Shown: positions 1,517 to 54,780, numbered from the stretch's first letter. The stretch: DNA of 61,984 nt from an uncultured Spirochaetales bacterium (GCA_964471825.1 CAYYKD010000002.1:68901-130884), one strand, 5' to 3'. Made by a program: numbers and translations. The notes: generated from the letters alone by a model not told the origin.

Positions 1517-2443
1517 ATGGCAGATATAGGTAAGAATAATGAGAATTACTATGATATTCTGAATATTCCAAGAGATGCAAACAATGCAGAGATAAAATCT
1601 GCCTATAAATTTCTTGTGTCTAAGTTTCATCCTGATCTTAATAAGGATGCAAATGCCTCGGATAGATTTAAAAAAATTGTTCGGGCCTATACCGTATTAA
1701 AAGATAGTGATCTTCGACCTCAGTATGATAGGGCAATAGGTAACGGATTGTTCTTTGTTCCAAAGATTAAGCTTGGTGAGTTGATAAAGGGTATAACGAG
1801 ATCCAGAGATTCAATATTAACCTTTGTTAAAATTTTTTTTAAGAATGTTGCCGGAAAAACTGTGCTGAGATCATTAAAAGAGTATAATGATGTTTCGGGT
1901 ATGGAATTTGATACTGTTTCAATACCAGAGGAATTGATAAGTATGTCCTTTAATGAACTCTCGCAACGATTGGTTTATTCATCGAATGTCTTTGTTAAGG
2001 CTAATGCATTATTAGCATTAGGTATGAAAGGGGAACGGCAGAGTTTTTCTGTGATATCACAGCATGTATTTTCAGAAAATCCTATGATATGTAAATCAGC
2101 AGTCTGGGCACTATCAAAACTTAGGATGAGAACTGCAACTGAGGTATTGAAGAAGTTGTATATAACAACACAGGATAGCGATTTGAAGATAACTATTGTC
2201 AAGTCAATATTTAGGTTAGAGCCGTCAGATAGTTATGAACTCTACAGTATGCTTGTAAAGTCAATAAATGATACTGATGAGTCTGTAAGGGTTGCGGCAT
2301 TAAATATACTCAACGAGACCGGTAAGAAGGTTGTGTATTCTGATATTAAGGATGTTTTTGGTACAGGGATGTCTGATTTTGGTCAGGGTGTGTTAAATAG
2401 GCTTATTGCACAAAATAGAATAATTAATTATTACGGGAGATAA
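1517..2443 (+). CDS. J-domain protein with C-terminal HEAT/PBS-lyase-like repeats
   Basis: N-terminal NYYDILNI...KFHPDLNK...F..I..AY.VL.D...R.QYD with an intact HPD motif. C-terminal helical repeats: VFVKANALLALG, ICKSAVWALSKL, DESVRVAALNIL. Confidence 0.85.
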   Translation: MADIGKNNENYYDILNIPRDANNAEIKSAYKFLVSKFHPDLNKDANASDRFKKIVRAYTVLKDSDLRPQYDRAIGNGLFFVPKIKLGELIKGITRSRDSILTFVKIFFKNVAGKTVLRSLKEYNDVSGMEFDTVSIPEELISMSFNELSQRLVYSSNVFVKANALLALGMKGERQSFSVISQHVFSENPMICKSAVWALSKLRMRTATEVLKKLYITTQDSDLKITIVKSIFRLEPSDSYELYSMLVKSINDTDESVRVAALNILNETGKKVVYSDIKDVFGTGMSDFGQGVLNRLIAQNRIINYYGR

Positions 2444-2916
2444 TGATGGCAAAAGACAATATTATAAGTACTACAGAGAATCAATTAATCTTATTTAGTC
2501 TGGGGAAAGGGTATTATGCAATTCCTATAGAAAATGTATTTGAGATTAAGAAAATACAGGAGATAACTGTAGTCCCAAAGTCACCAAAATATATTGAAGG
2601 GGTTATTAACCTTAGAGGAAATGTAGTTCCAATAATAAATCTTAGAAAAAGATTTGGAATGGAGCTTGTTGAATTTTCAAAGAAGAATAAGATAATTATT
2701 GTTGAAGTAGGTAAAAGGCAATTTGGATTGATCGTTGATGCAGTTGCTGAGGTTATTGTCTTAAATAATGATCAGGTAGAGTCGACTCTTCCTACCTCCT
2801 CCGGTCTAAAGGCAGAGTTTATTAAGGGGATCGGCAAACTTGTTGATAAACTTATTATTATTCTTGATATAACAAGAATTCTACAAAGTAATGAAGAGAT
2901 CAGAATAGAGGCGTAG
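2443..2916 (+). CDS. cheW: Chemotaxis coupling protein CheW
   Basis: LILFSL...YAIPI..V.EI, VPKSPKYIEGVINLRGNVVPIINLRKRF and FGLIVDAVAEV. The start overlaps the upstream stop (TAATG). Confidence 0.95.
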   Translation: MMAKDNIISTTENQLILFSLGKGYYAIPIENVFEIKKIQEITVVPKSPKYIEGVINLRGNVVPIINLRKRFGMELVEFSKKNKIIIVEVGKRQFGLIVDAVAEVIVLNNDQVESTLPTSSGLKAEFIKGIGKLVDKLIIILDITRILQSNEEIRIEA

Positions 2917-2945
2917 TCTTTTCATATATAATTTTTGCAAGAGAC
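2916..2945. repeat. Degenerate remnant of the GAGGCTCTTGCAAAAAT MITE family (weak palindrome)
   Basis: ATTTTTGCAAGAG (2931-2943) is identical to the start of the right TIR of the 19106-19286 element. The left arm GTCTTTTCA is poor. Confidence 0.35.
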
Positions 2946-2986
2946 ACTAATATTTAGGATTAGAAATAGGTTAAATAGAGGGGTAT

Positions 2987-3859
2987 ATGAACAATGTTAC
3001 AGGAAACTTATCTCCGCTTGTTTTTAAGTTTGAAGAGATTATGAAGGAACCTTCAAGATTAACAATGCAGCAATTTGAGAGACTTTCTAAGTTGATCTAT
3101 GATATATCCGGAATTTGCCTAAAGGAGAACAAACTGACACTTCTTTCTAATAGGCTTAGAAAGAGGTTGGAAGTGTTATCATTTGAAGATTTTAATGAGT
3201 ATTTTGCCTATCTGTTTTCCGGTGGCGGATATTCTAGTGAAATCGACCAGATAATTAATGCAATATCTACTAATGAAACATATTTTTATAGAACAGATGC
3301 ACAGTTTAGGGTCATGATTGATGTTGTAATGCCGAAACTTATGGAAAAGGGAACAAGCATATCAATACTAAGTGCAGGTTGTTCTACAGGTGAGGAACCA
3401 TATACAATTGCTATGATGCTTAATGAAAAGGGTTGGTTAAAAAATGGTATTGTTTCGATAAAAGGCGTCGATATTAATAGTGAAGTTATTGACCTTGCCG
3501 GTAGGGGGATCTATGATGAAAAAAGCATAAGGCTCCTACCGGATGAATATAAAGAAAAATATTTTATACCTACTGATAATAAGAAGTATAAGTTGTGCGA
3601 TGATATTAAATCGAGGGTGAGTTTTGAAAGGCTAAATTTAAAGAATGGAACTATTGACGGGAAATATACAATAGTTTTTTGCAGGAATGTGATGATATAT
3701 TTCGATAGAGATGATCAGGTCGCTCTAATAAATAGGATCTATAATTCTATGGAATCAGGTGGTTACTTTTTTATCGGACATTCTGAATCCTTGTACTTTT
3801 TGTCTAATGTTTTTAAATATGATATGATCTACGGAACGCCTGTTTACTTCAAAGAGTGA
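2987..3859 (+). CDS. cheR: Chemotaxis methyltransferase CheR
   Basis: STNETYFYR, SAGCSTGEEPYTIAM, GVDIN, FCRNVMIYFD and GGYFFIGHSESL. Confidence 0.95.
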   Translation: MNNVTGNLSPLVFKFEEIMKEPSRLTMQQFERLSKLIYDISGICLKENKLTLLSNRLRKRLEVLSFEDFNEYFAYLFSGGGYSSEIDQIINAISTNETYFYRTDAQFRVMIDVVMPKLMEKGTSISILSAGCSTGEEPYTIAMMLNEKGWLKNGIVSIKGVDINSEVIDLAGRGIYDEKSIRLLPDEYKEKYFIPTDNKKYKLCDDIKSRVSFERLNLKNGTIDGKYTIVFCRNVMIYFDRDDQVALINRIYNSMESGGYFFIGHSESLYFLSNVFKYDMIYGTPVYFKE

Positions 3860-3888
3860 ATGGGGAAATTGAATAGAGGGAGATTTGT

Positions 3889-6261
3889 ATGGCTTTTATT
3901 GATGAGAAAAGAATACAGGAAGCGTTTTTAGAAGAGGTTGTAGAACTTCTTGAGCATCTTAATGAGAAATTACTCGAACTTGAGGATGATCCGTCCAGCA
4001 AGGAAACGATAAATGAAATTTTTAGATATTCCCACTCAATAAAAAGTGAGGCTGCCTTGGTGGGTTATATGAATATGTCATCCATAGCTCATAAAATGGA
4101 GGATATATTTGAAAAAGTAAGAAGGGATATTCTTTTAGTTGATAAGGAGATAATGGACGCCCTTTTTATGGCGTATGATAGAATAATGGATATAATAGGT
4201 ACTATTCAGGCGGGTGGAGATGACAAACAGATAGATATTGATGATGTTATTGCTGCATTAAATGGGGTAATTAAGAGGATAGATCCGAGTGCCGGAGATG
4301 TCAAAGTAAAGAGTAAACCCGTGGCAGAAGATACGCGAGATGAATCTGTTGTTGATAGTATATCCGGTAAGATAGGTGATCTATCAGGTGTCAGTTTCAG
4401 CGATATGGAAAAAAACCAGATAGAGGAAGAGCTTGAAGCCGGTACGAGATTCTATAAGGTTATGGTAAAACTGGATCCTGAGTGTGATATGAAATATCCA
4501 AGGGCCTATCTTGTTTACAATAATTTTGATAATATGGGGACTGTAGTTAAGTCTGTGCCTGATATAAAGACAGAGACTGAGGATGATAGATTTATTAAGC
4601 TCGATATGTATATTTTTACTGAGCGGACATTAGACGATCTAAGGATTGCAGCGGATGTAGATCAGGTCTCAAAAGTTGAGGTGCTTGAGATCGGCAAAAA
4701 TGCAATCCTCTCCCTGCTTGGAATGGATGATATGATCTCTCAGGATGACCTGCTTAGCGAAGATGATGTAAAAAGTGCAGAGCTTATTGAGGAACAATGG
4801 GCTAGAGAGTACGCTGATTCACTTAACAGGGTTGGTATTCAGGAAAGTGATGCTACAAAAACCGGCTCAGAACAGCAGACAACCGAAACAAAAGATCTAA
4901 AACAAGAAAAAACTGATAAATCAGATAAGTCAGATAAGGATCTTTCAAAAGGGGATGCTCTTCAAAAACAAACAATAAGAGTTGATATAGAGAGGCTGGA
5001 TAACCTATGGAATCTGGTTGGAGAGCTGATTATTACACGATCCAGGTATCTTCAGATAATTGATAAGATCAATGACTTTGAGACAGTACAGGCAATAAAG
5101 TCAGAGATTGAGGATGCAACAAATGTGCTTGATCGGATAACTGATCAAATGCAGGTTGGTATGATGCAGGCGAGAATGGTTCCGATAGGTAATGTTTTCT
5201 CTAAGTTTCCACGGATGGTAAGAGATCTTGCAAATCAGATTCACAAGAACATTGAGCTTGAGATTGCAGGGGAGTCAACAGAGATAGATCGGACAGTTAT
5301 TGAGCATATTGCAGAACCATTAACCCATTTAATAAGAAATTCTATCGATCATGGTATTGAGTTCCCGGAAGATAGAGAGAAGAACGGAAAATCCCGTGTA
5401 GGAAAGGTAATTCTCAAGGCCTATCAGGAAGGTTCAAGTATCTATATTGAACTCTCAGATGATGGTAAGGGGATAAGCGTAGAAAAGATTAAGGAAAAGG
5501 CATTGCAGAATGGCCTCTATACACAGCAGCAGATTTCATCATTAAGTTATACAGATATATTAAATATTGTTTTTCAGCCGGGTTTTACAACTAAGGATAA
5601 TATATCCGATCTTTCGGGACGGGGTGTAGGTATGGATGTTGTAAAAACTAAGATAGAGAAACTTAGGGGACGGGTTGAAATTCAGACTACAGTTGGTGTA
5701 GGAACTAAATTTTTAATTACTCTTCCATTAACACTTACAATTGTTGAGGCATTACTTGTAAATGTAGAGAGAAATATCTTTGCGATACCAATTTCTGCTG
5801 TTGAAGAAACTATAATGATAAAGCGAAGTATGATTAAATTTTTTGATGAGTATCAGATCTATGATTATAGAAATGAGACCCTTGCACTAATATTTCTATC
5901 TGAATTGGTGGGACTTGATATCGTTAAACCTGAGACCCCTGATGATGAGTTGTATATAGTTGTAGTATCATTTGAGGGCCGAAAAGTGGGTCTGGTTGTT
6001 GAGCATCTTATAGGAGAACAAGATATAGTTATTAAATCTCTTGATGAGGTCTTAAGAAATAATGATGGTATCGCAGGTGCATCTGTACTTGGGGACGGAG
6101 GTATAGCTCTAATCCTCGATACATCAGCACTGGTTAAAGCTGCCATCAGGGAGTGGAATAAGATAAAGTTAAATGTTGATTTCTATGGGGAAGGTGTGGA
6201 GAAGGTGGGGCTTGATATACTATATGATAATCTCAATAAAGAGGCCGTGTCTACAAATTAG
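3889..6261 (+). CDS. cheA: Chemotaxis histidine kinase CheA (P1-P2-P3-P4-P5)
   Basis: HPt EIFRYSHSIKS (H49). P2-like MKYPRAYLV...VKSVP. TIRVDIERLDNLWNLVGEL, HLIRNSIDHGIE, DDGKGI, SGRGVGMDVV. C-terminal CheW-like domain GASVLGDGGIALILD. Confidence 0.96.
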   Translation: MAFIDEKRIQEAFLEEVVELLEHLNEKLLELEDDPSSKETINEIFRYSHSIKSEAALVGYMNMSSIAHKMEDIFEKVRRDILLVDKEIMDALFMAYDRIMDIIGTIQAGGDDKQIDIDDVIAALNGVIKRIDPSAGDVKVKSKPVAEDTRDESVVDSISGKIGDLSGVSFSDMEKNQIEEELEAGTRFYKVMVKLDPECDMKYPRAYLVYNNFDNMGTVVKSVPDIKTETEDDRFIKLDMYIFTERTLDDLRIAADVDQVSKVEVLEIGKNAILSLLGMDDMISQDDLLSEDDVKSAELIEEQWAREYADSLNRVGIQESDATKTGSEQQTTETKDLKQEKTDKSDKSDKDLSKGDALQKQTIRVDIERLDNLWNLVGELIITRSRYLQIIDKINDFETVQAIKSEIEDATNVLDRITDQMQVGMMQARMVPIGNVFSKFPRMVRDLANQIHKNIELEIAGESTEIDRTVIEHIAEPLTHLIRNSIDHGIEFPEDREKNGKSRVGKVILKAYQEGSSIYIELSDDGKGISVEKIKEKALQNGLYTQQQISSLSYTDILNIVFQPGFTTKDNISDLSGRGVGMDVVKTKIEKLRGRVEIQTTVGVGTKFLITLPLTLTIVEALLVNVERNIFAIPISAVEETIMIKRSMIKFFDEYQIYDYRNETLALIFLSELVGLDIVKPETPDDELYIVVVSFEGRKVGLVVEHLIGEQDIVIKSLDEVLRNNDGIAGASVLGDGGIALILDTSALVKAAIREWNKIKLNVDFYGEGVEKVGLDILYDNLNKEAVSTN

Positions 6262-8219: not shown

Positions 8220-8248
8220 AAATTATTTAATTTTTGATATAAAGTCAA
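8220..8248 (-). promoter_or_regulatory. Candidate sigma70 promoter for the Zn-binding protein gene
   Basis: Minus strand TTGACT-N17-TAATTT; the -10 element is weak. Confidence 0.35.
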
Positions 8249-8363
8249 GATAATTATATTATGAATATAGAGGGCGGAGGGTTTTGCATGAAACTCATTT
8301 ATAATTTTTACTTTTTTACTTTTTTTGATGACTTAATTATAATTTTATTTTAGTATTGCGGTT

Positions 8364-10484
8364 ATGAATATATTGAAGAGCTTGTTATATATATTTTTAT
8401 TATTAGTGTTTTTTTTTAGTTTTGGCTGTAGGTCTGACTACTTAGAACTTTCGGATAATGACAGTTGCAACATCGAGGGAGAGTGGGAGATTTATCCGTC
8501 AATATTTCTATATTCAGATAAGGTTGATCAATCAGAACTTAGGAAGCTTTTTTTCAGATTTCCATTTAATCCGGCAAGCTCCGCTAATAATTATGACTTT
8601 TATAATGATGCAGATCATGCTAAATCAAAGAAATCCGGTGATGGCTTTGGATATGGAACAATACGAAAATTGGTGGAGGTTGATCTTACATCTGATACGG
8701 TATATCTAAGGATACCTGAGATCCCCTCCAGTTATAATTTATGGATTAACGGTGTTTTTCGAGATAGTGTTGGAATCCCGGGTAAATCAAAGGCTGATAC
8801 TAAACCGGGTTACAGGATAGATTTTTATGAATTAAAAAATGGGAGAGACTTTACCGGCAATCAAGTTGAAATTGGCATAGAATATGCAAATTTTACCAAT
8901 AGAATGGCAACAGTCAGCCATAATTTAACCATTCATTCAAAGAGAGGGTTTGAAAGAACATTTTTCATTAACAATTTTGTTATCCTCCTCGTAAATGGAG
9001 TTCTACTATTTCTATTTATCTACTACGGACTTCTCTTTTTTATGAATCGAGTTTATTTGCAGAATCTATATTTTTCCCTGTTTGCTCTATCACTTTTGTT
9101 AAGACAGATAATTCTTGGGCAGGAGATAACCTCCGTTATATTTTATGGAATAAGCTGGCACCTGAAGTATACAGTCTGGTACATTCTGATTATCGTTCAG
9201 CTCTGGCTCTACAATCAATTTATTGCAACCTTGTTTAAATATGAAGCCTCAAAACTTATATCAAGGCTGTTGAGTGTAATATGTGTTGTCTATTCTATTT
9301 TTTGTGTATTCTCACAGCCTGAGGTTTTTACGGCTACTATTATATTTCCGCAGATGACCGCCCTCATGTTTGGTCTCTATGTTCATGTAGTCATTGTTAG
9401 GGCCATTATAAATAAAAGAAAAGGGGCGATTCTTGTTATCGTTGGTAACTTTGTTATGTTTCTTGCTGTAATAAATGATGTCCTGTATAGTCACGGTATC
9501 TTGCAGACAGGACGACTACTCACTATTGGTGCATTAGTGTTTATAATTGCACAGGCAAACCTTCTGGCGGTTGTGTATACTGATAATGTTCGAAAAATTG
9601 CAATGGTTACAGATCGACTTTCGCTTATAAATACAATCTACGGGTACTTTGTGCCGGCAGGATTAACATCATTGTTTAATAAAGAAAAAACAGGGGATGT
9701 TAAAGCGGGGGATTTTGTTACTAAGAAAATGTGTGTATTTATTCTAGATATCAGAGATTTTACCAGCCTATCTGAAACGATGTCAGCAAAAGAGTGTTTT
9801 GATTTTATCAATGGTTTTTTATCAGAGTTTGTTCCTGTTATTAAGCAATGTAGGGGCCTTATTACAGGGTTTGCAGGTGATCAGATTAATGGGTTGTTTG
9901 AAAAAAGTTCAGATGGAGTTGAGGCCTCTATCAAGATAGGCAGGTTATTGGCCCGTTACAATAAGGATCGTTTAAGTCAGGGGTTGGTTCAGATCAATAT
10001 TGGAATAGGTCTATGTACCGGTGAGGTCGTACTTGGGATAAGCGGTAATCAAAATAGGATACAACTGACAGCAGTCTCAGGAGAGGTCCAGAAAGCAATC
10101 CTTCTTGAATCTCTGACTAAATACACAGGCTCTATGATAATTGCTGATAAGTCGGTTCTCGATGATAGTGAGGACTCAATAAAACTCTCATCCAGGCGGA
10201 TAGGAAGGTACTCGGTTTCTCAAGGTGTCCAAAGTGATGCCTATGAGATGATCTTTAGTTTTATGCCAAAGTCGACTCTAAGACGGCTTGAAACAAAATA
10301 TCTATTTGAAAGAGCACTAAACGATCTTGAATCGGGCAGAATAGAGTCCGCAGGGGTGGAGTTTAGCTCATTACTTCAAGAAAACCCCAATGATGAGTTA
10401 ATCAAATGGTATCTTAGAGTTAAGAATTCTATAGTAAAATCTGAAAATATCTCAGTCAGTTTGGATGGTCTATATGAAGCATAA
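8364..10484 (+). CDS. 7TM-DISM receptor class III nucleotide cyclase, subunit A (metal-binding Asp pair present; K, N, R and KGK absent)
   Basis: Lipoprotein-like leader (FSFGC), extracytoplasmic beta domain (GEWEIY, YNLWING), about 7 TM helices, cyclase core LDIRDFT...AGDQ...IGIGLCTG and a C-terminal TPR-like hairpin. Confidence 0.88.
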   Translation: MNILKSLLYIFLLLVFFFSFGCRSDYLELSDNDSCNIEGEWEIYPSIFLYSDKVDQSELRKLFFRFPFNPASSANNYDFYNDADHAKSKKSGDGFGYGTIRKLVEVDLTSDTVYLRIPEIPSSYNLWINGVFRDSVGIPGKSKADTKPGYRIDFYELKNGRDFTGNQVEIGIEYANFTNRMATVSHNLTIHSKRGFERTFFINNFVILLVNGVLLFLFIYYGLLFFMNRVYLQNLYFSLFALSLLLRQIILGQEITSVIFYGISWHLKYTVWYILIIVQLWLYNQFIATLFKYEASKLISRLLSVICVVYSIFCVFSQPEVFTATIIFPQMTALMFGLYVHVVIVRAIINKRKGAILVIVGNFVMFLAVINDVLYSHGILQTGRLLTIGALVFIIAQANLLAVVYTDNVRKIAMVTDRLSLINTIYGYFVPAGLTSLFNKEKTGDVKAGDFVTKKMCVFILDIRDFTSLSETMSAKECFDFINGFLSEFVPVIKQCRGLITGFAGDQINGLFEKSSDGVEASIKIGRLLARYNKDRLSQGLVQINIGIGLCTGEVVLGISGNQNRIQLTAVSGEVQKAILLESLTKYTGSMIIADKSVLDDSEDSIKLSSRRIGRYSVSQGVQSDAYEMIFSFMPKSTLRRLETKYLFERALNDLESGRIESAGVEFSSLLQENPNDELIKWYLRVKNSIVKSENISVSLDGLYEA

Positions 10485-12756
10485 TTTTGTCGGATCATTT
10501 AATAAAGATGATCATAATAAAAACGATAACAACCAAGATGATCTAAATAAAAATGAGTTTAGTTTCTATGGGTTAAAATCTAATGGGATAATAGTAAAAT
10601 CACTAATTATTGCAGCGATCTATATCTCATTGATAGTTGTTTTGTCTGTGTTATCAAGTGTAAGCTCGGGATTTCAGGGCATAGTTTCAGTTAGAGATGG
10701 GGTTTCATATGTTAACTATAATCTGCTAATGGAAAATGGGAGTGTCGCAATAAATAATAATTGGGAGTTCTACTATAGACGATTGATCTCACCTGAGGAG
10801 TTTGCCGTTATAGATAATCTAGTTTTAAATGAGTTAGCCTCTGATAAGCTAGTCTTAGATAAAATGAGTCCGTTGATTGTTAAGACACCTGCTTCATGGA
10901 CCTCATATAGTGATAATCAAACTAGATATTCGGGTGACGGCTATGCTACTTACCGTCAGAGAATAATTATTGATACTGACACTAGACTGATAGTCAGATT
11001 TAGAAAGATCGGAACTTCGTGCAGAGTCTGGATAAATGGGTTAGAGAGAATAACAGGCGGGGTTGTTGGAACTGACATTAATACTACAATACCGGGGTAC
11101 AACCGTACATTTGCAATTGTTGAGCCTAAGGATGGACAGCTTGATATTGTGGTACAGGCGGCCAATTTTCACCATAGATCAGGTGGGATTAGGGAGTCTA
11201 TAGAGATAGGCACTATCCCGTTGATGCGCAGGAATATATATATCATCAACACTATTGAGATTCTATCACTTGGAATGCTTTTTATCATATTTGTATATCA
11301 TCTCATGCTCTTTGTAGCGTACCGTGAAAGGGTAGAATACCTGTTTTTTTCACTCTTTTGCCTGTCAATATCGATAAGATTTTTTATTGATTCATCTGAG
11401 GTTCTGTTTTATATATCAAGGATAGTCGATTGGCGATCGTTGGTAATTCTTGACTATCTCACAGTGGTAACCAGCCCATATCTATACTTTATGTTCCTTG
11501 CTTCGATCTATCCTCTAAGATTCTCTAAAATTGAGAAGATGATCGTTACATATGATGTCTTTGTTTTTTCATTGTTTGTACTATTTACTCCTGTGAAGGT
11601 ATTTACCGGTGCAAATGAGCTTCTATATGGTCATTTTGTATGTGTCGGGATCTATATGGTGGTAAAAATTGTCTATGCAGTTATCAAGAAGGAAAAGGAT
11701 GCGATCTATATTCTTACTGCAGTCTCTATACTCTTTGGTGCATCGATCTACGACCTTCTTTCTTCAATTGATCTTTATAGCGGTAATTACTATTTTCATA
11801 TTGGGATGATGTTTTTTCTTTCTATTCAGTCTGTTGTTCTTGCGGGTAGGGTGAATAGCAATCTAGAAAGAAGTCATCAGCTGCAGAGGGAGTATGAGGT
11901 TACAAATAGAAACTATGAAAGGTTTGTTCCTGCTGAGTTTATCTCAAAGTTAGGTAAGAAAGATATTGTAGAGTTGAAACAGGGAGATTTTATAATTGAT
12001 GATATTACTATTGCATTTATCGGACTGACTAGGGGGCGAGAAGAGTATAACAGATTAACAGATGTCGATAGAATTAGATTTTTAAATAAAATGATAGATA
12101 TTATCAATAGCTCTCTGGAAAACAACGGCGGTTTTATAGATAAGTTGACTGTTACCGATATAATGGTTATCTTTCCTGACAATCCTCAAAATGCATATCG
12201 GGTCTGTAGAAGGATTATGGAGGAGACCGAACGATATTTTAATGAGTCTGAGTATAATATCCGACTTGGAATCGGGATTCACACAGGTGAGGCGGTTCTG
12301 GGTATTATTGGTGAACAGGAGCGAATGGAGAGTACGGTTATATCTGATGCGGTAAATCTTGCAAGTAGAATAAAGAATCTAAATAGTTATTTTGATACCG
12401 GAATGTTAGTAACTAATTCTACCTACGCCGGTTTATCAGATGAGGTTTTCTATAACTCAAGATTTCTCGGGCGGGTCAAGGTCAAGGGAAAGAATGAATC
12501 AGTAAATATATTTGAGGTGTTTACTGATAATAAGCCTGACACCATCATTAAGATTAACACAAAAGACTATTTTGAGAGTGGACTTTTTGCCTATCACAAA
12601 AAAGATATGCAGACTGCAAAGAGGGTGTTTTCGGAGATATATTCCTCAAATCCATCTGATAAGCTATGTAGTTATTACCTTGAGAGGTCGTGTTTCTTTA
12701 TAGATAATCCACAGATGCTTGATGAAGAGCTGTTTGAAGTAATTAAGAAAAAATAG
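10465..12756 (+). CDS. 7TM-DISM receptor class III nucleotide cyclase, subunit B (K/T, N/R and KGK present; metal-binding Asp pair absent)
   Basis: N-terminal TM, sensor domain (NWEFYY, GYATYR, RVWING, ANFHHRSGG), about 7 TM helices, cyclase core FIDK...IGIHTG...TVISDAVNLASR...RVKVKGK. The start may be 10474; either start overlaps the upstream gene. Confidence 0.9.
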   Translation: MVYMKHNFVGSFNKDDHNKNDNNQDDLNKNEFSFYGLKSNGIIVKSLIIAAIYISLIVVLSVLSSVSSGFQGIVSVRDGVSYVNYNLLMENGSVAINNNWEFYYRRLISPEEFAVIDNLVLNELASDKLVLDKMSPLIVKTPASWTSYSDNQTRYSGDGYATYRQRIIIDTDTRLIVRFRKIGTSCRVWINGLERITGGVVGTDINTTIPGYNRTFAIVEPKDGQLDIVVQAANFHHRSGGIRESIEIGTIPLMRRNIYIINTIEILSLGMLFIIFVYHLMLFVAYRERVEYLFFSLFCLSISIRFFIDSSEVLFYISRIVDWRSLVILDYLTVVTSPYLYFMFLASIYPLRFSKIEKMIVTYDVFVFSLFVLFTPVKVFTGANELLYGHFVCVGIYMVVKIVYAVIKKEKDAIYILTAVSILFGASIYDLLSSIDLYSGNYYFHIGMMFFLSIQSVVLAGRVNSNLERSHQLQREYEVTNRNYERFVPAEFISKLGKKDIVELKQGDFIIDDITIAFIGLTRGREEYNRLTDVDRIRFLNKMIDIINSSLENNGGFIDKLTVTDIMVIFPDNPQNAYRVCRRIMEETERYFNESEYNIRLGIGIHTGEAVLGIIGEQERMESTVISDAVNLASRIKNLNSYFDTGMLVTNSTYAGLSDEVFYNSRFLGRVKVKGKNESVNIFEVFTDNKPDTIIKINTKDYFESGLFAYHKKDMQTAKRVFSEIYSSNPSDKLCSYYLERSCFFIDNPQMLDEELFEVIKKK

Positions 12757-12775: not shown

Positions 12776-13468
12776 ATGAATAATGCAATTGTAACCGGAG
12801 CATCTTCCGGTATAGGTAAGGATATAGCTTTATATCTTATAAAAAATGGATTCAATGTACTGGGACTTTCAAGAAGTGATCCTAAGATAGATGACCCTAA
12901 TTTTAAACATCATAGAATAGACCTCTCAAAAACATCTGATATATCAAAAAATCTAAAGCCAATAATTAATAACCTTGAATCAATTGATCTTCTTGTTCAC
13001 TCGGCAGGATTTGGTCTGTTTGGGCATCATGAAACCTTAAATATTGAAAAGGTTCAAGAGATGATTGATGTTAATCTATCGTCACCGATAAAAATCACCT
13101 CATTATGTTTACGAAAGATAAAAATGTGTAAGGGAACAGTCATTTTTATCTCCTCTATAACTGCAAGAATTTCTGCATCAATGGGGAGTGCCTATGCGGC
13201 GACTAAGGCAGGTATATCAAGTTTTGCTTCAAACCTATTTGAGGAAAATCGTAAATATGGTGTTAAAATTTCAAATATTCTACCTGATATAACAGATACC
13301 CCATTCTATAACTCCTTGAATTTTAAACCTTCCTCTGATAATCAGTCTTTTATTACGACTGAATGTATAGTAAATGCAGTTGAAATGATTCTAAAATCAC
13401 GAGTTGAGACTGTTATAACTGAAGTTGTCTTACGACCGCAAAGGGTAATCATAGATTTTAAACGATGA
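12776..13468 (+). CDS. Short-chain dehydrogenase/reductase (SDR)
   Basis: TGASSGIG Rossmann motif, HSAG, catalytic S...YAATK. Confidence 0.92.
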   Translation: MNNAIVTGASSGIGKDIALYLIKNGFNVLGLSRSDPKIDDPNFKHHRIDLSKTSDISKNLKPIINNLESIDLLVHSAGFGLFGHHETLNIEKVQEMIDVNLSSPIKITSLCLRKIKMCKGTVIFISSITARISASMGSAYAATKAGISSFASNLFEENRKYGVKISNILPDITDTPFYNSLNFKPSSDNQSFITTECIVNAVEMILKSRVETVITEVVLRPQRVIIDFKR

Positions 13469-13555: not shown

Positions 13556-13628
13556 TTAATTATCATATAAGTTTAATTTTTCAGTTTGAGTATTTATTGA
13601 AATTCATATCGAAGTGGATTTAATAATG

Positions 13629-13648
13629 CAGATAGGTTTACTTATCTG
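13629..13648. promoter_or_regulatory. Near-perfect palindrome CAGATAGGT-TT-ACTTATCTG in the MCP leader (operator or RNA hairpin)
   Basis: 9-bp arms with one G-T mismatch, between the promoter candidate and ATG 13731. Confidence 0.35.
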
Positions 13649-13730
13649 TTTTAATTTATTGATGTCTTTTTATTATCGATAGTTTTTTAATAATAGTTTT
13701 TTAATAATTGATATTTTAACTTATTACCTT

Positions 13731-15770
13731 ATGGAGGTCTCTATGAACATTGGAAGAGAGTCAAAGATAAAATTGATGTTTTTTTTTGTAATATCTGAGC
13801 TTATTGTTTTAGTATTTATGGATTTTATTCTCTATCCTGTACTTGGGTTGGAGTTTAACATGATTATTAGTGGTTCCAGAAACACATTTATTATACAGAT
13901 GTCTATTCTAATTATTTTTTCGATTATTTTATTGAGACTTATAAGACCGTTTGATAAGCTGAATAGTGATTCAATATCAGAGGATGAGAGAGCCAGGATA
14001 TTATCTGTAGAGAAAAAAATTATGGGAATTATTGTAATTCTTAACTCGGCAGGCTATATAGTCGGGCCGATTCTCGGTGGAATGGCAAGAATGTATCTTG
14101 TTGACGGATTTCTAAGGAATGCCACAGTGAGACTAATGATTTCCTCTTTCTTCCTGGGTCCCGCTGTTGGAATAGTTCAGATCATATATACCTCAACACT
14201 ATTTCATCGAATAAAATCAAAATTAAATATTATTGAATTCACAATTGATAGATATAGCTTAACCCTAAGGAAAAAAACTGTCCTTATTTTAGCAGTGTTT
14301 ATTGCATTTATCAGTGTGTCATCTCTTTTAATTGTATATACTGCTATAGAGAGAGCATCAGGTTTGAGTAATATATTTCTTGTTGTTAAGGATGGTGTTC
14401 TACCTGAATATGCCTCTGATACAGATAGACTCATTAAATTATCTATTGCTTCTAATGATCCCATGATTGTTGAGCTAGCCGGTCGCGTGGAGAAGCAGAG
14501 GAATGATATGGGTATTTATCAAAAAATTATAGCTCTAATGGCTGTTCTAATTTTTTTATTTGTATTTATAGGTATATTCTTGTTTGCCTCAAACCTCTCG
14601 GAACTAATGCAGAGTCTTGTGAGGGGGATTAAGAATATTATTTCTGCCGAAAATAAGGGTAGCAGATTTGTTGTAAAAACAGATGCTGCTGAGATTGGAG
14701 AAATCCAGGTACTTATAAATAATCTTATAGTATCATTAAATAATAAATTCTTGAAGATCTATAGCAGTGCCAATGAGATAATTGAATTGACAGGAAATGA
14801 GAAAGAGCATATAGAAGAACTACTCGGCTCTACAGAGGATATCTATAAGAATGTAGGGGAACTCTCAGTAAGTCTTGATAAACAGGTTGCCAATACAAGG
14901 GAGACCTCGGTTGTTCTTCGGGACACGGTGAAGAGTATCAATGGAAATCTGTTAATGATCTCAGAGCAGTCAGCGATGGTCGAACAGATGAGTGCATCAT
15001 TGACTGAGATGATAGCTTCGCTTAATTCTGTAACCAATTCTATAGAGAATGCTGCCGGATTGATAAGTAAACTTTCTGAGGCATCATTCTATGGCATGGA
15101 ACAGATTGATGAAATGAAAGAAACAATAAGTGATATCTCCAGAGTCGGTGAGGTTATTGGTGGAATAGCAGGGACAATTGAGCAGATAAATGACAAGACC
15201 TCGATTCTTGCCCTGAATGCTGCAATTGAGGCTGCTCATGCAGGGGAGAGAGGAAAGGGCTTTGCGGTAGTTGCAGATGAGGTCAGGAAACTTGCTGAGA
15301 GTACCGGGGGACAGACAAAAGAAATAACTGAACATCTAAAGAGTTTGCGATTAACAATAGATAAGACAGTCTCAAATTCTGTATCTGTCAGCGATGCTAT
15401 TGAGAAAATAAGGGAGGGCGTTGAGGTCACTAATACTCTGATTGTTGAACTTGATAATGCCTCCAGAGAACAGATGATAAATTCTAATGAGAATATGAAG
15501 GCTGTAACCAGGCTTGTTGAAAATACAGGTGTTCTTCTTAAGAATATTGAGGATCAGAAGCAGCAGAATGAGTTTCTTGGTAGAATTGCACTCTCTAATG
15601 AGGCATCAGCTGATGAGATTAGTGTAATTAAGGATAGGCAGGTAAAATATTTTAGTGAGCTAAAGAGTCATTTTGAGAGTTTCTATGGGTATTTTACGAA
15701 GGTAAGCGGCAAACTTCGAGAACTTGAGACTAATTTTGATGATATTGATTTTAGGGATGAACAAAGATAA
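13731..15770 (+). CDS. Methyl-accepting chemotaxis protein with polytopic membrane N-terminus
   Basis: Multiple TM helices, HAMP-like segment (AEIGEI...IN), hairpin tip [32 protein letters not shown]. Confidence 0.93.
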
Positions 15771-35937: not shown

Positions 35938-37266
35938 TTGAAAAAATCAATAGTTAGAAAAACCTTTATCCTCTATTTACTTTTCGGGATTTTTATGGGG
36001 GTGGTTTTCCCCGGTTATGCCTGGTTTTTCGTTAATTTCAAGTCCAGTTTTCATTTTGTCTTTTTTATAATTGGGTGTGTGGGGGCAGGAATAACAGTTG
36101 GTGCTGTCAGCTTTTTTATTATGAAGAAAAGTATACTAAGGATCATTAAGGGGATCTCTAATTCGATCAACCTGCTTGAGCGGGGGGATGTTGAGTTGGT
36201 TGATGTATTAAAGATCGAGTCAGATGATGAAATCGGGAGTCTTGTTGATTCATTTAACAAGATCGTGACAGAATATAAAGATATAATTGTAAAAAACAGA
36301 TCCGTATTATCCGAGGTCAGAACTATTAGTGATTATCTGGATGAACATATCAACCATGTTAAAGACTCTGCTGATAACATTACTGCCTTTATTGGAAATG
36401 TTAACCAGTTGATATGGTATCTTAGTTCTGAGATAGAGATATCTGATACAAATTGGGATACACAGAACAAATCAACCTTGATTGCTGTAACCCATGTTGT
36501 AGAGTTGTTTACACAGATTGATCTCTTGACCAAGTCTTTACTAAATCAGACTGGTTTTATTACTAATATTTCTGAGGATATAAAAAGCATTAGTGAAAAA
36601 ATCTCAGGAAGTAGCTCCGGTTCACTTGCAGCAAAGAGCAATGAATTGATCGATCATATCAAGGGGACAATTCATCAGTATAGCAGTGATCTAAACTCTA
36701 TTGAGAGTTCAATAATGACAATAACTGAGATATCTCAAAAGACGAACCTTCTGGCAATAAACGCTTCAATAGAAGCAGCTCGTGCCGGTGTGCATGGAGA
36801 GGGATTTAGTGTTGTTGCAACAGAGATTAAGAAGCTTGCAGGAAATGTTCAGAAGATGTCATCTTCTATCCTTGCTGTAATAAAAAAAGTAAAATCTGAT
36901 TTTGATGGTTCAAATCATAAACTTGATCAGACAATCAAGGATTTTGAGCAAAACTATATTACTCTAAAAGGGTCAGGTGAGAACATAATTCTAAGTGTTC
37001 AGGATATATCAAAACTCTATGATGAGGTGCGGGAGAACCACAAATTTCTGGCAAATACCCTTTCTGGGTTAAGAAAAAATATAGTTCTCCTTAGAGACGC
37101 CTCACAGACTTCTAAGAATTCAATAGAGGTAATAAAATCTAACTCCACAAGCGTTACGGATAATATGAATCAGATTCAATCAGATGTTAACTTGATATCA
37201 AATACAATATCTGATGTAGCGTCAGTTGCAATAGATCTTACTGAGAAACTAAAAGAGATAAATTAG
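35938..37266 (+). CDS. Methyl-accepting chemotaxis protein (2TM-HAMP-MA, minimal periplasmic loop)
   Basis: Two adjacent TMs, HAMP ([13 protein letters not shown]), [33 protein letters not shown]. Confidence 0.9.
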
Positions 37267-41300: not shown

Positions 41301-43124
41301 TTGAATAAAAACTCGAAAATGAAGAGGTTAAAGGAAATATTAATGCCCGGTAATACCAATTTAGACTCACAAAACAACTTTGATCCATTAATTAAAGAGC
41401 TTTCAGATACAGAGAGAAGAAAGTTACTGGAAAAAATCTCTACAAGGCTTGATAGTAAAGTGTTGAATGAAAACTATGAGGAATCGGTTAAGTCTGAAAC
41501 AACGGCATTTTCTAAACAAGATGGATATCTTGAAAATCGCCTTAACTCGTTAGGTTTTATAGATAGAATAATAATCTGGTTTAAGTCACTATTTAGCGGA
41601 CGAAATGAAAAAATAATAGTTCTGGATATTGAGCTGTCGCATTTAAAAAGAAAGATCAATTCAGTGAACTCCGGTATAGTTGATTTTGAAAATGGAGTTT
41701 TGACACATAGATTCGCACAGGTGTTTTTACCATTAATTAGTCAACTGTCTGATAATTTATCAAGATTTGAAAGATTCATGCTTGACCCTGTTTACTACTA
41801 TGGTTTTTTATCCTATGCATTTGAAAAGAGGTTTGATGAAAAACAGAAAAATGATCTTGAAGACTTGACTCCTACAACGATTGCATTCTCTGAAAATAAG
41901 GAGAGCTATATTGAGGATCAAGTGTTTTACAGTGAGTTGGAGAGAAGACAGAAAAAGTTTTTTTTAGGATTAAATAGCTCTGCTTTTACTGTTATTTCTG
42001 AACAGATAAATCTGTTTGACCGTTTCTTACTACTATTAAAAACTGATTTTAAACCATTCTTTGTAGAGTTTAAGATAATCAATAATACTGATGTAATTAA
42101 TGTTTCTAACTTTGGAGAATTTAAAAAGCTCGTTGGGGTACTTGAGAGATTTACTTCAATATTAAATAGTTTTCCTGAGTCGATCAGTCAGGTTGATTAT
42201 ATAAAATATCTACCGGAATATAGCAAAGAGAATCCAATTATCATGGTTAATGACAGTATCGATATCTTTACTGAATATGATCTTAAGGTTGTTGAGGAGA
42301 TAATAAGTTCTATGAGTCAGATTGGGAAACAGATCCCATTTACTGATATATTTAAATACTTCAAAAAAAATCTATTCTACACTCCTAAGACGATAAATAT
42401 TAAGTATGATTTTACCTCATCATACAAAGACTATAAGAAAAATGTTACGGATTTTCTTTGGAAAAAGTTCTATGCTGATTTTAAAAAAGAACTATACTAT
42501 AAAATGGTTGATAAGGTTTTGCCGGGCTATAGATTTTCATGCTTAAGGTATTTTAACGGGTCTCTTAGAAATATGCTTGATCCGGAATTAAAACCTTTAT
42601 TGTTGAATACAGCACATCTAAATCTAGGGTATAAATTTCATGAGGAAATCTATACGAAGTTTATGGAACCACTTGTACACAGACTTTTAATTGATGGATC
42701 GTTCTACGATAATAACGAAAGAGAGAAACTTTCTACGGTATATTATAAATTAAAGGAGATTAGTAAGAAGATTAAGGAGTTTGATGAACTCATGAGTGAA
42801 TCCGGTGAGCTTGGTAAAAAGTTTCGATTATACCAGAGAAGGGCAAGTGCAGATGAATATTACCGGCAATCATTGAAAAATTCAATTATTGAGATAAACG
42901 GTAAATCAAATGAGATTGTTGATGAACTAATTCAAAGTTATGATGATGTAAATAGATTTATTGTTCAGTTTGAGGTTCCTATTCCGGGAAAAGGGTTTCC
43001 TATTACTAATTTAGATGACATAAAACCCTTAAGCGGTCTTCATGTGTATTTATCTATTGAAAAAGCATTGAAATATTTTGAAAATTTTTATAGTATTTAT
43101 AGAATATCAGAAACAATACAATAA
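41301..43124 (+). CDS. DUF5312-like protein, paralog 1
   Basis: FDPLIKELSDTERRKLLEKI start and EPLVHRLLIDGSF motif resemble the spirochaete DUF5312 family (from memory). Clear paralog of the next gene. Confidence 0.65.
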   Translation: MNKNSKMKRLKEILMPGNTNLDSQNNFDPLIKELSDTERRKLLEKISTRLDSKVLNENYEESVKSETTAFSKQDGYLENRLNSLGFIDRIIIWFKSLFSGRNEKIIVLDIELSHLKRKINSVNSGIVDFENGVLTHRFAQVFLPLISQLSDNLSRFERFMLDPVYYYGFLSYAFEKRFDEKQKNDLEDLTPTTIAFSENKESYIEDQVFYSELERRQKKFFLGLNSSAFTVISEQINLFDRFLLLLKTDFKPFFVEFKIINNTDVINVSNFGEFKKLVGVLERFTSILNSFPESISQVDYIKYLPEYSKENPIIMVNDSIDIFTEYDLKVVEEIISSMSQIGKQIPFTDIFKYFKKNLFYTPKTINIKYDFTSSYKDYKKNVTDFLWKKFYADFKKELYYKMVDKVLPGYRFSCLRYFNGSLRNMLDPELKPLLLNTAHLNLGYKFHEEIYTKFMEPLVHRLLIDGSFYDNNEREKLSTVYYKLKEISKKIKEFDELMSESGELGKKFRLYQRRASADEYYRQSLKNSIIEINGKSNEIVDELIQSYDDVNRFIVQFEVPIPGKGFPITNLDDIKPLSGLHVYLSIEKALKYFENFYSIYRISETIQ

Positions 43125-43146: not shown

Positions 43147-44895
43147 ATGGATAAAAAATCGAGTCTTGATTTAATTATTAAAGATCTTGCTGTAGAAGAA
43201 AAGAAAGATCTCCTTAATAAAATTCAAAAACCCGACAAACAGTCTCAAGAAAGTAGTGATGATGTTAATGAGAAATTAACTCCTGCACAGAAACGAGATA
43301 ATCAACTAAAGATTGCCCGAAAAGAGTATGAAAAGTATGGTTGGCTTAGTAAGATGATAATCAAGATGATATCGATTATTAAGGGCAAGAGGACCGAAGA
43401 GATCGTTCTTGAAAATATTATTTTAAATATAAAAAAAGAGATTATTTCAAGGTATGGTAATATTGTTGATTTTGAAAAGAATGCATTTACAAATGAGTTT
43501 GTAAAAGAAATAATTCCGCTTGCTAAGTCAGGGATTGAACTCTCTCAGCTATTTTCACGATATATACCTGATAATATAAATAGCTTTGTAGCCTATCTAT
43601 TTGAGAACGGTTTAAGTGAGCAGAAGCGGAAAATGCTAGCCCAGACAGATCCGGAAAATCTCGGATATAATCGGGACTATTTTGACAAGATGAAATTTTC
43701 CAAAGAGAAGGATAAGAGATTTAAGGATTATTTTAATATAATTGAGCGATCAGATTATTTTGAATTGAGCAGTCAGATAGATAAATTTGAGATCCTTCAA
43801 AAACTGATTTCATTTGATTTTAGATCATTTTTAAAGCTTTTCTATGTTCTAGATCCTGATGATAAGATAAGTTCGTCAAATTTTGCAGAGTATTATAAGA
43901 TAGATAAAGATCTTGAAAGGCTTTTTAGAATAATCTATAATATTACTTTTAAATTCTCTGATATAGACTTCATTCTAAATTATGCAGAATATGTTAAGCT
44001 TACCGCTGATAATACCGGAAAAACATTGATACCAACTCAGGATGAGATAAGGTCAATCGGTAATATATTTAATGCTCTTGAAAACCTCTTAAGAAAATTA
44101 CCTCTCTTAATGATATTCCGTTTTTTTAAAGAGGACATTCAATATACTCCAAATAAGATTAATTCACCTTACAATTTCCTATTGAATTATAAGAGCTTTA
44201 AGAAAGATCAAAATAATAAGATATGGGATGCATATTATAAAAAAATGAAGGAAAAGTACCTTAGCGATCTCATAGAAGAGTTACTCGGTTTCTATGAATT
44301 TACAACATTATCGCATTTTTCTACAGTACTCAAGGCTCAACTTGAGAAGTATTCAACAGTAAAAGTTGGAAATGTTTATTATTTAAATCTGACCATGGAA
44401 TTTATTAATAGAATATATAAGAAAAAGATAGAGCCTATTATTAACTCACTTCTTGTTAATGGAAATTTTAAGAACGAGGGGTCAAAGGTTTCCCTATCTA
44501 ATGCATATTTTGAGCTTGATAATGTTCAAAAAAATATAATGGAGTATGATGAATCATTCTCTGAGAATAACGGACAGGGTAAAAAACTTATGACTTTCAT
44601 AAAGTTGGTGGGTACTGATTCGAAGTATGTTAAGACTCTACAAAATAAGGTCTTGGAGATAAATACTAAAACACTGGAGTTGGTAAAGAGTGTTTCTACA
44701 CCACTTAAAAATATGTATGAGATTCTTCTTCGGATTCTTGATCAGAATAATCCGGTTATGTGTCCGGTAAGCAATGTAGACTCCATTAGATTTTCAGGGT
44801 ATCTTGCTAATCCAATAAAGGCGATCGAGGATAGTGTTAAATATTTTACACTCTATTATAATATTCTTGAAAACTTTGATGAAGGAAAGAAGTAA
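43147..44895 (+). CDS. DUF5312-like protein, paralog 2
   Basis: LDLIIKDLAVEEKKDLLNKI, NIVDFE and EPIINSLLVNGNF align collinearly with paralog 1. Confidence 0.65.
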   Translation: MDKKSSLDLIIKDLAVEEKKDLLNKIQKPDKQSQESSDDVNEKLTPAQKRDNQLKIARKEYEKYGWLSKMIIKMISIIKGKRTEEIVLENIILNIKKEIISRYGNIVDFEKNAFTNEFVKEIIPLAKSGIELSQLFSRYIPDNINSFVAYLFENGLSEQKRKMLAQTDPENLGYNRDYFDKMKFSKEKDKRFKDYFNIIERSDYFELSSQIDKFEILQKLISFDFRSFLKLFYVLDPDDKISSSNFAEYYKIDKDLERLFRIIYNITFKFSDIDFILNYAEYVKLTADNTGKTLIPTQDEIRSIGNIFNALENLLRKLPLLMIFRFFKEDIQYTPNKINSPYNFLLNYKSFKKDQNNKIWDAYYKKMKEKYLSDLIEELLGFYEFTTLSHFSTVLKAQLEKYSTVKVGNVYYLNLTMEFINRIYKKKIEPIINSLLVNGNFKNEGSKVSLSNAYFELDNVQKNIMEYDESFSENNGQGKKLMTFIKLVGTDSKYVKTLQNKVLEINTKTLELVKSVSTPLKNMYEILLRILDQNNPVMCPVSNVDSIRFSGYLANPIKAIEDSVKYFTLYYNILENFDEGKK

Positions 44896-53976: not shown

Positions 53977-54780
53977 CTAATTATTATTAGTGTCGATTTC
54001 CAACTTAATTGCCTTAATATTTCTTCCTGTTATTGACTCTATAGTAAAGTTTAGATTGTTATAACTTACCTTTTCTCCCTTTAAAGGGATTTTACCAAAG
54101 AGCATAAACATTAAACCGCCTAGAGTGTCAATCTCTTCTACTGTCAGATTTGTTGCAAGCTGATCATTCATTTCTTCTATGGTTAATCTTGGATTGATAA
54201 TAAATGTGTTTTCTGAGACAGTAATAATATCATCAATTTCATTATCAAATTCATCTTGAATATCCCCTATGATTTTTTCTACAATGTCCTCTAGAGTAAT
54301 AATTCCTGACATACCGCCATATTCATCGACGACAATTGCCATGTGGCTTTTTCTCTCTCTGAGCTCAATTAAAAGTGTACTTATATACTTCGTCTCAGGT
54401 ACAAAAAATGCAGGTCTGAACTCATTCTGAAGTATAAAACCGTTTGGTGCAGACAACGACTTTAGTAGATCTTTTGTGTGCAAAATCCCGATAATATTAT
54501 CAATCTTTTCATCATACACGGGGAGTCTTGAAAATATTTTTGCTGATAGCATATTTAGGATATCTTCAAGTTTTGAGTCCTTAGAAATACTGGTAACATC
54601 TACCCTGGGAACCATTATCTCTTTAACTGTAAACTCTTTTAAGTCAACAATATTTTTGATCATTTTTATATCATTGTGATCAAGTAAACCCCTTTTTTCA
54701 AGATCTCTAATCGACCTGTGAAGAGGATTTTCTTTATTTCGTAATTTTTTAATCTTCTGTAATATTCTATTCAATCTCAA
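53977..54780 (-). CDS. CBS-pair/CorC-HlyC domain protein (hemolysin C/CorC family)
   Basis: VKEIMVPRVD, SRLPVYDEKIDNIIGILHTKD, HMAIVVDEYGG.SGIITLEDIVE.I.GDI.DE.D and DTLGG. Confidence 0.92.
   Translation of the reverse strand: MRLNRILQKIKKLRNKENPLHRSIRDLEKRGLLDHNDIKMIKNIVDLKEFTVKEIMVPRVDVTSISKDSKLEDILNMLSAKIFSRLPVYDEKIDNIIGILHTKDLLKSLSAPNGFILQNEFRPAFFVPETKYISTLLIELRERKSHMAIVVDEYGGMSGIITLEDIVEKIIGDIQDEFDNEIDDIITVSENTFIINPRLTIEEMNDQLATNLTVEEIDTLGGLMFMLFGKIPLKGEKVSYNNLNFTIESITGRNIKAIKLEIDTNNN

Follow-up and report, generated by a model that had tools for sequence, protein, structure and literature searches.

In class III cyclases two cyclase domains form a head-to-tail dimer, and each active site is built from both protomers, one giving two metal-binding Asp residues and the other Lys and Thr (or Asp), Asn, Arg and a second Lys. 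In an uncultured Spirochaetales bacterium, two adjacent genes for receptor-type cyclases, here called A and B, each lack part of this set, which raises the question of whether, and in what combination, their products could be catalytic. The genes lie in a DNA stretch of 61,984 nt (GCA_964471825.1 CAYYKD010000002.1:68901-130884), referred to here as the window. A sequence-only reading of this stretch had proposed that only the two products together make an active enzyme, and the computational analysis presented here followed up that proposal. According to its results, A and B are probably the two subunits of one membrane receptor adenylate cyclase, which would be an obligate heterodimer with a single active site producing cyclic AMP (cAMP).

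Division of the catalytic residues between A and B

At the six core positions (first metal Asp, specificity Lys, second metal Asp, specificity Thr, Asn and Arg) A reads D,G,D,T,Q,L and B reads G,K,T,T,N,R; the residues and their positions are listed in table 1, where B is numbered in its 763-residue form. Whole motifs are degenerate as well. B is without the D-I-x-G-F-T phosphate/metal loop, and A is without SDxVNLASR and KGK, with RYSVSQG at 615 in place of the latter motif, which B keeps as RVKVKGK at 670-676. Every residue number that the sequence-only reading had assigned in the two genes proved correct, including the spacing of 44 both between the two Asp of A and between the Gly and Thr that replace them in B.

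The same reading had named a mere shift of the missing residues as an outcome that would speak against it. The register was checked by HMMER alignment to 3r5g (CyaB), 2w01 (Cya2), OaPAC and a family hidden Markov model (HMM) built here. The PDB chains and the family HMM gave identical columns, which ruled out a register shift; the profile alignments show substitution. Judged as homodimers, in which each protomer must carry all metal Asp, specificity residues, Asn and Arg, both A and B fall short. The pair does show the reciprocal loss of heterodimeric and pseudoheterodimeric cyclases, with two different domains that jointly hold one complete site.

The two proteins share one architecture, as had also been read from the sequence: both match the Pfam families 7TMR-DISM_7TM (PF07695; E 4e-15 for A and 1e-20 for B) and Guanylate_cyc, and they align along their whole length, with 26% identity end to end. 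In each, an outer domain precedes the 7TMR-DISM membrane domain, and the class III cyclase domain that comes next is followed by a helical tail. The full-length AlphaFold2 (AF2) model of A has a predicted local distance difference test score (pLDDT) of 85, and its cyclase domain superposes on 3r5g (Foldseek TMt 0.83, root-mean-square deviation 2.1 A) and also matches 1wc0, 2w01 and OaPAC. In phmmer searches of PDB cyclases, E values of 2.5e-12 (A) and 2.9e-8 (B) were obtained.

A Lys/Thr pair at the base-specifying positions is the ATP signature of class IIIb, and guanylyl cyclases carry Glu/Gly or Glu/Cys there; the subclass was reportedly defined by Linder and Schultz in 2003. B has this pair (K560 and T624), which indicates ATP as the substrate; the best PDB matches are CyaB (3r5g), Cya2 (2w01), photoactivated adenylyl cyclases and CyaC (1wc0). 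It could still be argued that the heterodimer forms and yields a product other than cAMP, either cyclic GMP (cGMP) or another cyclic or linear nucleotide, given that Cya2, the best PDB sequence match for A and the second-best for B, is a guanylyl cyclase and that two residues cannot fix substrate specificity with certainty. Since CyaC and CyaB, class IIIb enzymes that are specific for ATP, share the Lys and Thr of B, we consider such a product quite improbable.

Conservation of the pair and recurrence of complementary pairs

Close relatives of the pair are uncommon. Pairs of the A/B type were found in five lineages, with identities of 31-69% and G+C contents of 33 to 59%. Besides the window these are an uncultured Spirochaetales metagenome-assembled genome (MAG) (L001, equal to L002 and L005; 66 and 69% identity to A and B, respectively) and three metagenome runs (Logan): L003 (41 and 42%), L171 (39 and 44%) and L172 (31 and 33%). 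A contig scan with the A alignment returned 80 genome loci, with L005 as the sole orthologue, and a metagenome scan with the B alignment, which matched N-terminal patterns, gave distant 7TMR-DISM proteins only and no new pair; the further lineages came from an exhaustive search of representatives.

In 5/5 lineages the gene resembling C1 of the mammalian enzymes comes first, and the end of its stop codon lies exactly 11 nt beyond an available start codon for the C2-like gene. A-type proteins have D, G (K in L172) and D at the first three positions, have lost Asn, keep or lose Arg and have no KGK. B-type proteins have G (N in L172), K, T followed by D or E, then T, N, R and KGK. Absence of genomic linkage between A and B homologues had been put forward as a ground for rejecting the heterodimer; they are linked in all five lineages, amid flanking genes that are unrelated from one lineage to the next.

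In neighbour-joining (NJ) trees the A clade and the B clade each had 100% bootstrap support and the same internal topology, and the pair has therefore been co-inherited as a unit. The trees did not support the further proposal of an old tandem duplication as the origin of A and B: an A+B clade was recovered in 1-26% of bootstraps, a grouping of B with the upstream Leptospira protein described below in 34-51%, and the deep branching was unresolved. Neither cyclase domain is less conserved than the remainder of its protein (identity to L001, L003 and L171 of 72/44/44% for A and 81/50/49% for B), which indicates that both genes are under purifying selection and that neither is decaying.

Single-gene relatives present a different picture. 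Of about 85 related cyclase domains, from 80 genome loci, all but one were canonical at the six core positions; in the exception, L069, the two Asp, Asn and Arg are present and the base-specifying residues are Gln and Gly. No overlapping tandem pair occurred among these domains. The exhaustive search covered 1.84 billion proteins; its best 150 representatives contained about 143 cyclase domains, of which 118 were canonical. Canonical single-gene 7TMR-DISM adenylate cyclases (P0003 in L004, P0005 and P0020) have the same four-part architecture as A and B, at 25-30% identity. Unlike A and B, they carry all six catalytic residues and KGK, stand alone and are presumably homodimers.

A complementary adjacent pair or fusion was present in all nine degenerate lineages for which contigs were examined (the five A/B lineages, the Leptospira pair, L173, L174 and the fused L170, which are not statistically independent), compared with none of about 80 canonical loci. 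The association of degeneracy with complementary pairing is thus very strong. Decay of duplicated genes would also yield degenerate catalytic residues, and A and B could then be relics on the way to pseudogenes whose complementarity is accidental. This explanation is barely conceivable in view of these counts and of reading frames that are intact in five lineages down to 31% identity, with the cyclase domains the best conserved and the kept residues invariant.

The layout is not unique to the A/B type. A search of genomes for complementary tandem cyclase genes, as proposed by the sequence-only reading, yielded more of them in Leptospira and other Spirochaetota, including L173 and L174. In saprophytic Leptospira, two 7TMR-DISM cyclase genes are adjacent, co-oriented and overlapping, with the same architecture and reciprocal degeneracy as in A/B. 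The upstream protein reads D,K,S,T,N,R,KGK and the downstream protein D,K,D,A,G,S,PAK. The pair differs from A/B in its reversed order (C2-like first), its 13-nt overlap and its milder degeneracy, as the only loss in the upstream protein is that of the second Asp, now Ser, and the downstream protein keeps the Lys. Orthologues of the upstream gene occur in at least 13 named saprophytic species, and the change of the second metal Asp to Ser was found in 23/23 orthologue clusters (61-100% identical). The pair was confirmed on an assembly of L. ilyithenensis and on a sequencing-run contig with a protein named L. meyeri by NCBI, and it adjoins fliG/fliH. Its orthology with A/B was left unresolved by NJ bootstrap trees.

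A second overlapping pair of 7TMR-DISM genes (4 nt) lies beside the Leptospira cyclases (L165:1-3833, minus strand; also in L166 and L167). One of its proteins has a histidine-kinase ATPase domain; in the other no output domain could be recognised. Heteromeric pairing may be a wider feature of 7TMR-DISM receptors.

Two further tandem pairs are likewise complementary. In L173 (1887-6112; complete 4.03-Mb genome CP115468.1; 4-nt overlap) the upstream protein reads Q,K,N,T,N,R,KGK, having lost both metal Asp, and the downstream protein D,K,D,T,H,I, with Asn and Arg lost. In L174 (4001-8247; GCA_051745065.1; 80-nt gap) the upstream protein reads K,K,D,T,N,R,KGK, with the first Asp changed to Lys, and the downstream protein D,N,D,T,K,K, with Lys, Asn, Arg and KGK lost.

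A further MAG (GCA_012520945.1, L170:4001-7789) encodes a single protein of 1262 aa, P0169, with two fused modules of outer domain, 7TMR-DISM and cyclase domain. In the C2-like first module the residues are N,K,S,T,N,R,KGK, and in the C1-like second module D,K,D,I,D,T; the first is cut short and runs directly into the signal-like helix of the second. P0169 could be a fused pseudoheterodimer with a part order like that of the mammalian transmembrane adenylyl cyclases (tmAC); being present on one contig only, it could be either a real fusion or an assembly or frameshift artefact. Other bacterial proteins, P0162, P0234, P0261 and P0196, carry two or three cyclase domains per chain. Besides a PAS domain, P0162 has a C1-like, a doubly degenerate and a canonical cyclase domain, and in the remaining three proteins a degenerate domain is combined with a canonical one.

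The recurrence of complementarity also bears on whether the A/B domains are catalytic at all. Both are degenerate by the homodimer standard, and their Pfam scores for Guanylate_cyc (PF00211) are low (A, E 1.9e-5 and 24.8 bits, cut-off 21.9; B, E 7.7e-11 and 42.3 bits), as might be expected if the cyclase-like domains served dimerisation, nucleotide sensing or scaffolding and no cyclic nucleotide were formed. A pair of that kind, however, would not keep D462/D506 in A alongside Lys, Thr, Asn, Arg and KGK in B. Instead, the complete catalytic set is kept jointly, with each residue invariant on the side where it is needed in five lineages, and the same complementarity is seen in the independent pairs of Leptospira, L173 and L174. 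A non-catalytic role is, in our estimation, very improbable.

A predicted heterodimeric receptor cyclase and its locus

In the proposed mechanism, each subunit would have a sugar-binding-like sensor outside the cell and, in the membrane, a 7TMR-DISM domain of seven helices, followed by a long signalling helix and a class IIIb cyclase domain. The contribution of A would be limited to the two metal-binding Asp and the phosphate-binding loop, that of B to the adenine-specifying Lys/Thr, the ribose/transition-state Asn/Arg and the gamma-phosphate Lys. As the residues are split in this way, A:A and B:B dimers each lack half of the catalytic machinery, and an A:B dimer would hold one complete ATP-to-cAMP site and one dead pseudo-site. 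From the sequences we infer the physical A:B heterodimer, the inactivity of the homodimers, the cAMP product and the nature of the ligand. The mechanism is feasible, since Guo et al. reportedly found in 2001 that complementary point mutants of Mycobacterium tuberculosis Rv1625c, one in the metal Asp and one in Asn/Arg and each inactive, regain activity on mixing.

Several points weigh against the heterodimer. Directly after the lost second Asp of B stands an acidic residue, giving T-D/E in 5/5 lineages where canonical relatives have DA, DS or DG, and this conserved residue could contribute to metal binding. The degeneracy of the A-type proteins varies among lineages, with Arg retained in L003A and L171A and Lys in L172A. 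No cAMP receptor or cyclic-nucleotide-binding protein was found among the window's open reading frames (ORFs) of at least 150 aa, and it is possible that other cyclase partners are encoded outside the window.

Spirochaetes often carry many class III cyclases of the same family. A and/or B might accordingly pair mainly with canonical cyclases encoded elsewhere, modulating them in a dominant-negative or an activating way, or a homodimer might have some unorthodox activity, for example through the conserved acidic residue of B (D565). Both versions are unlikely. Strict adjacency, the conserved 11-nt overlap and congruent trees indicate an exclusive, stoichiometric partnership, and B is without the first Asp and the entire GFT loop.

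For the overlap, a value of up to 20 nt had been given earlier. The 20-nt form does exist, with an alternative ATG at 10465 (763 aa, ORF 10465..12756). The source database calls gene B as 760 aa from the ATG at 10474, and the orthologues start at the equivalent codon, so the overlap is probably 11 nt, with gene B in the +1 frame. Under the heterodimer proposal, this overlap would couple translation of B to that of A, favouring synthesis at 1:1. A GGATGG sequence lies 6 nt 5' of the ATG, and the last residues of A, LDGLYEA, overlap the ribosome-binding region and start codon of gene B. Thus, in window 10453-10484, the bases coding for the C-terminal motif of A, (S/T)-L-D-G-L-Y/H-E/D, double as the Shine-Dalgarno-like GGATGG sequence and the start codon; conservation of the motif may be tied to translational coupling.

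Table 1. Positions of features in and around the A/B pair, counted from the first nucleotide of the window, and of the Leptospira pair. B residues are numbered in the 763-aa form.
Feature	Position	Strand	Description or basis
Upstream intergenic region	8234..8343	+	Two sigma-70-like promoter matches, 8234-8262 and 8315-8343; weak evidence
Gene A	8364..10484	+	706 aa, C1-like receptor cyclase, predicted metal/phosphate half-site; ORF and Pfam
A signal sequence, aa 1-22	8364..8429	+	Possible lipobox FSFGC at end; read from sequence, model helix 2-20
A extracellular beta-sandwich sensor domain, aa ~23-203	8430..8972	+	AF2 strands 34-192; aligns with B outer domain
A 7TMR-DISM seven-helix membrane domain, aa 204-402	8973..9569	+	PF07695; model helices 193 to 429
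A linker/signalling helix, seventh transmembrane (TM) helix into cyclase domain, aa 403-453	9570..9722	+	Continuous model helix 386-429
A cyclase homology domain, aa 454-632 (451-629 in AF2 model)	9723..10259	+	Pfam, HMM alignments, Foldseek
A residues kept	9747-9749 (D462), 9879-9881 (D506)		Also R565 and DFT motif
A residues replaced	9867-9869 (G502), 10089-10091 (Q576), 10101-10103 (L580)		G502 for Lys, Q576 for Asn, L580 for Arg
A C-terminal helical (tetratricopeptide repeat-like) tail	10260..10481	+	Model helices 636-705; aligns across family
A/B overlap	10474..10484	+	11 nt (ATGAAGCATAA)
Gene B	10474..12756	+	760 aa, C2-like receptor cyclase, predicted substrate/transition-state half-site; ORF and Pfam
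B extracellular sensor domain, galactose-binding-like jelly roll	10654..11253	+	AF2 pLDDT 91.5, predicted template modelling score (pTM) 0.88
B 7TMR-DISM membrane domain, aa 263-460	11251..11844	+	Pfam PF07695
B cyclase homology domain, aa 512-687	11998..12525	+	Pfam, HMM alignments
B metal Asp replaced	12022-12024 (G520), 12154-12156 (T564)		D565 next to T564
B residues kept	12142-12144 (K560), 12334-12336 (T624), 12355-12357 (N631), 12367-12369 (R635), 12484-12486 (K674)
B C-terminal helical tail	12526..12753	+	Homologous to A tail; alignments
Short-chain dehydrogenase gene	12776-13468	+	Pfam adh_short; 19 nt downstream of gene B
First terminator-like hairpin after gene B	13628-13649	+	Terminator scan
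Leptospira pair	L165:5899-10121; L168:4001-8250; L169:4001-8292		L165 is Leptospira sp. 96542; pair also in L166 and L167

Foldseek matched the B outer domain best to the sugar-binding domains at the N-termini of GH2 beta-galactosidases and beta-glucuronidases (E 3e-7, TMq 0.5). The galactose-binding-like jelly roll is the fold type attributed to DISMED2; no Pfam match to an N-terminal 7TMR-DISMED1/2 domain was obtained for the outer domains of A or B at E <= 1. G21 of A, in the putative signal sequence, is invariant among the three aligned A orthologues (window, L001 and L003). The outer domains of A and B are divergent, and the two subunits may therefore sense different things. With different sensor domains, the proposed heterodimer could combine two signals, or a single ligand could be bound asymmetrically.

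The numbers of promoter and terminator matches in the window were not above those in shuffled-sequence controls. The short-chain dehydrogenase gene is possibly co-transcribed with A/B, though it lies outside the conserved unit. No conserved operon partner of A/B was found: the downstream gene encodes the short-chain dehydrogenase in the window, a helix-turn-helix protein in L001 and a cytidylate-kinase-like protein in L003. A chemotaxis cluster of cheW, cheR and cheA is located just upstream of the pair (window 2443-6261), a gene for a methyl-accepting chemotaxis protein (MCP) downstream of it (13731-15770), and a second MCP gene further along (35938-37266).

Elsewhere in the window, a second kind of 7TM receptor, carrying an HD hydrolase domain (7TMR-HDED, 7TM-7TMR_HD and HD), is encoded on the minus strand at 53977-58410, in a row with a phoH-like gene, ybeY and a CBS/CorC gene. 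Two neighbouring paralogous genes of the uncharacterised DUF5312 family (41301-43124 and 43147-44895) encode 607 and 582 aa. At one edge (17-2443) a DnaK fragment is followed by a DnaJ-domain protein in which HEAT repeats replace the usual C-terminal domains of DnaJ. Rfam and tRNA scans of the window gave no match to a non-coding RNA.

Relation to known cyclases and biological meaning

Eukaryotic enzymes and engineered mutants of Rv1625c have already made the heterodimer principle itself familiar. The Rv1625c mutants are artificial and derive from one homodimeric gene, whereas the split in A/B is natural, fixed and conserved. Mammalian tmAC (class IIIa) resemble A/B in the reciprocal loss between C1 and C2, in having one active and one degenerate site, and in the multi-helix membrane domain before each cyclase domain. 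They are single polypeptides with 2 x 6 TM helices and a Lys/Asp pair, regulated by G proteins and forskolin. A/B, in contrast, has two genes, 7TMR-DISM and extracellular sensors, a class IIIb-like Lys/Thr pair and a separate bacterial origin.

The alpha and beta subunits of soluble guanylyl cyclase (sGC) resemble the proposed A/B enzyme in being two homologous gene products that act only as a heterodimer, with a single catalytic site; the beta homodimer is inactive (PMC3591389). In contrast to A/B, sGC is eukaryotic, cytosolic and regulated by haem/NO, makes cGMP and is not encoded by an overlapping operon. Matches of A to tmAC and sGC are weak (E 0.005-0.06), and the nearest relatives of the pair are bacterial 7TMR-DISM class IIIb-like cyclases. 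On these comparisons A/B would work like C1/C2 and sGC alpha/beta, yet is placed outside the class IIIa lineage by descent.

Heterodimers are known in higher eukaryotes according to one review (PMC8815786), which also covers the chytrid proteins RGC1/2 and NeoR. As proposed for A/B, these are products of two receptor-cyclase genes that work only as heterodimers. They differ in being eukaryotic, light-sensing and cGMP-producing, and RGC1 and RGC2 keep all catalytic residues (PMC8815786). Their heterodimer dependence has been attributed to regions other than the catalytic residues (PMC8815786). The gcyB/gcyC genes of R. centenum were considered as a precedent and rejected, as they encode non-catalytic subunits and are not comparable.

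According to a 2022 review, class III cyclases of bacteria are homodimers and the fused dimeric form is unknown there (PMC9552081), and asymmetric, single-site class III cyclases are treated by reviews as a eukaryotic feature (PMC9552081, PMC8815786). The sequence-only reading knew of no described bacterial system with the A/B layout; likewise, the searchable literature yielded no account of a natural heterodimeric class III cyclase from bacteria, although subscription-only reviews might hold an earlier remark.

A natural two-gene heterodimer would show that cyclase subfunctionalisation happens in bacteria too. It also matters for annotation, as A or B alone would score as an adenylate/guanylate cyclase although each is probably inactive by itself. 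Such pairs would provide simple systems for studying the benefit of asymmetry, be it a regulatory pseudo-site, two sensors per enzyme or tighter control, and for studying how heterodimer specificity is encoded and how a 7TM sensor drives a cyclase.

The chances are evenly balanced that the pair in the window belongs to a recurrent, so far unrecognised class of heterodimeric receptor cyclases in bacteria, in which tandem 7TMR-DISM adenylate cyclase genes of Spirochaetota and other bacteria turned asymmetric several times or once anciently. If this is true, bacteria would offer independent repeats of the evolution of cyclase asymmetry, and some of them, the saprophytic Leptospira, are open to cultivation and mutation. 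A recurrent class would also suggest two-input gating of cAMP, possibly feeding motility or chemotaxis. In Leptospira, cAMP rapidly controls motility (PMC9043183), and by analogy, together with the chemotaxis neighbours of A/B and the fliG/fliH genes beside the Leptospira pair, a link of A/B to motility is a reasonable guess. With both pairs next to such genes, a physiological read-out of the proposed enzymes may be near.

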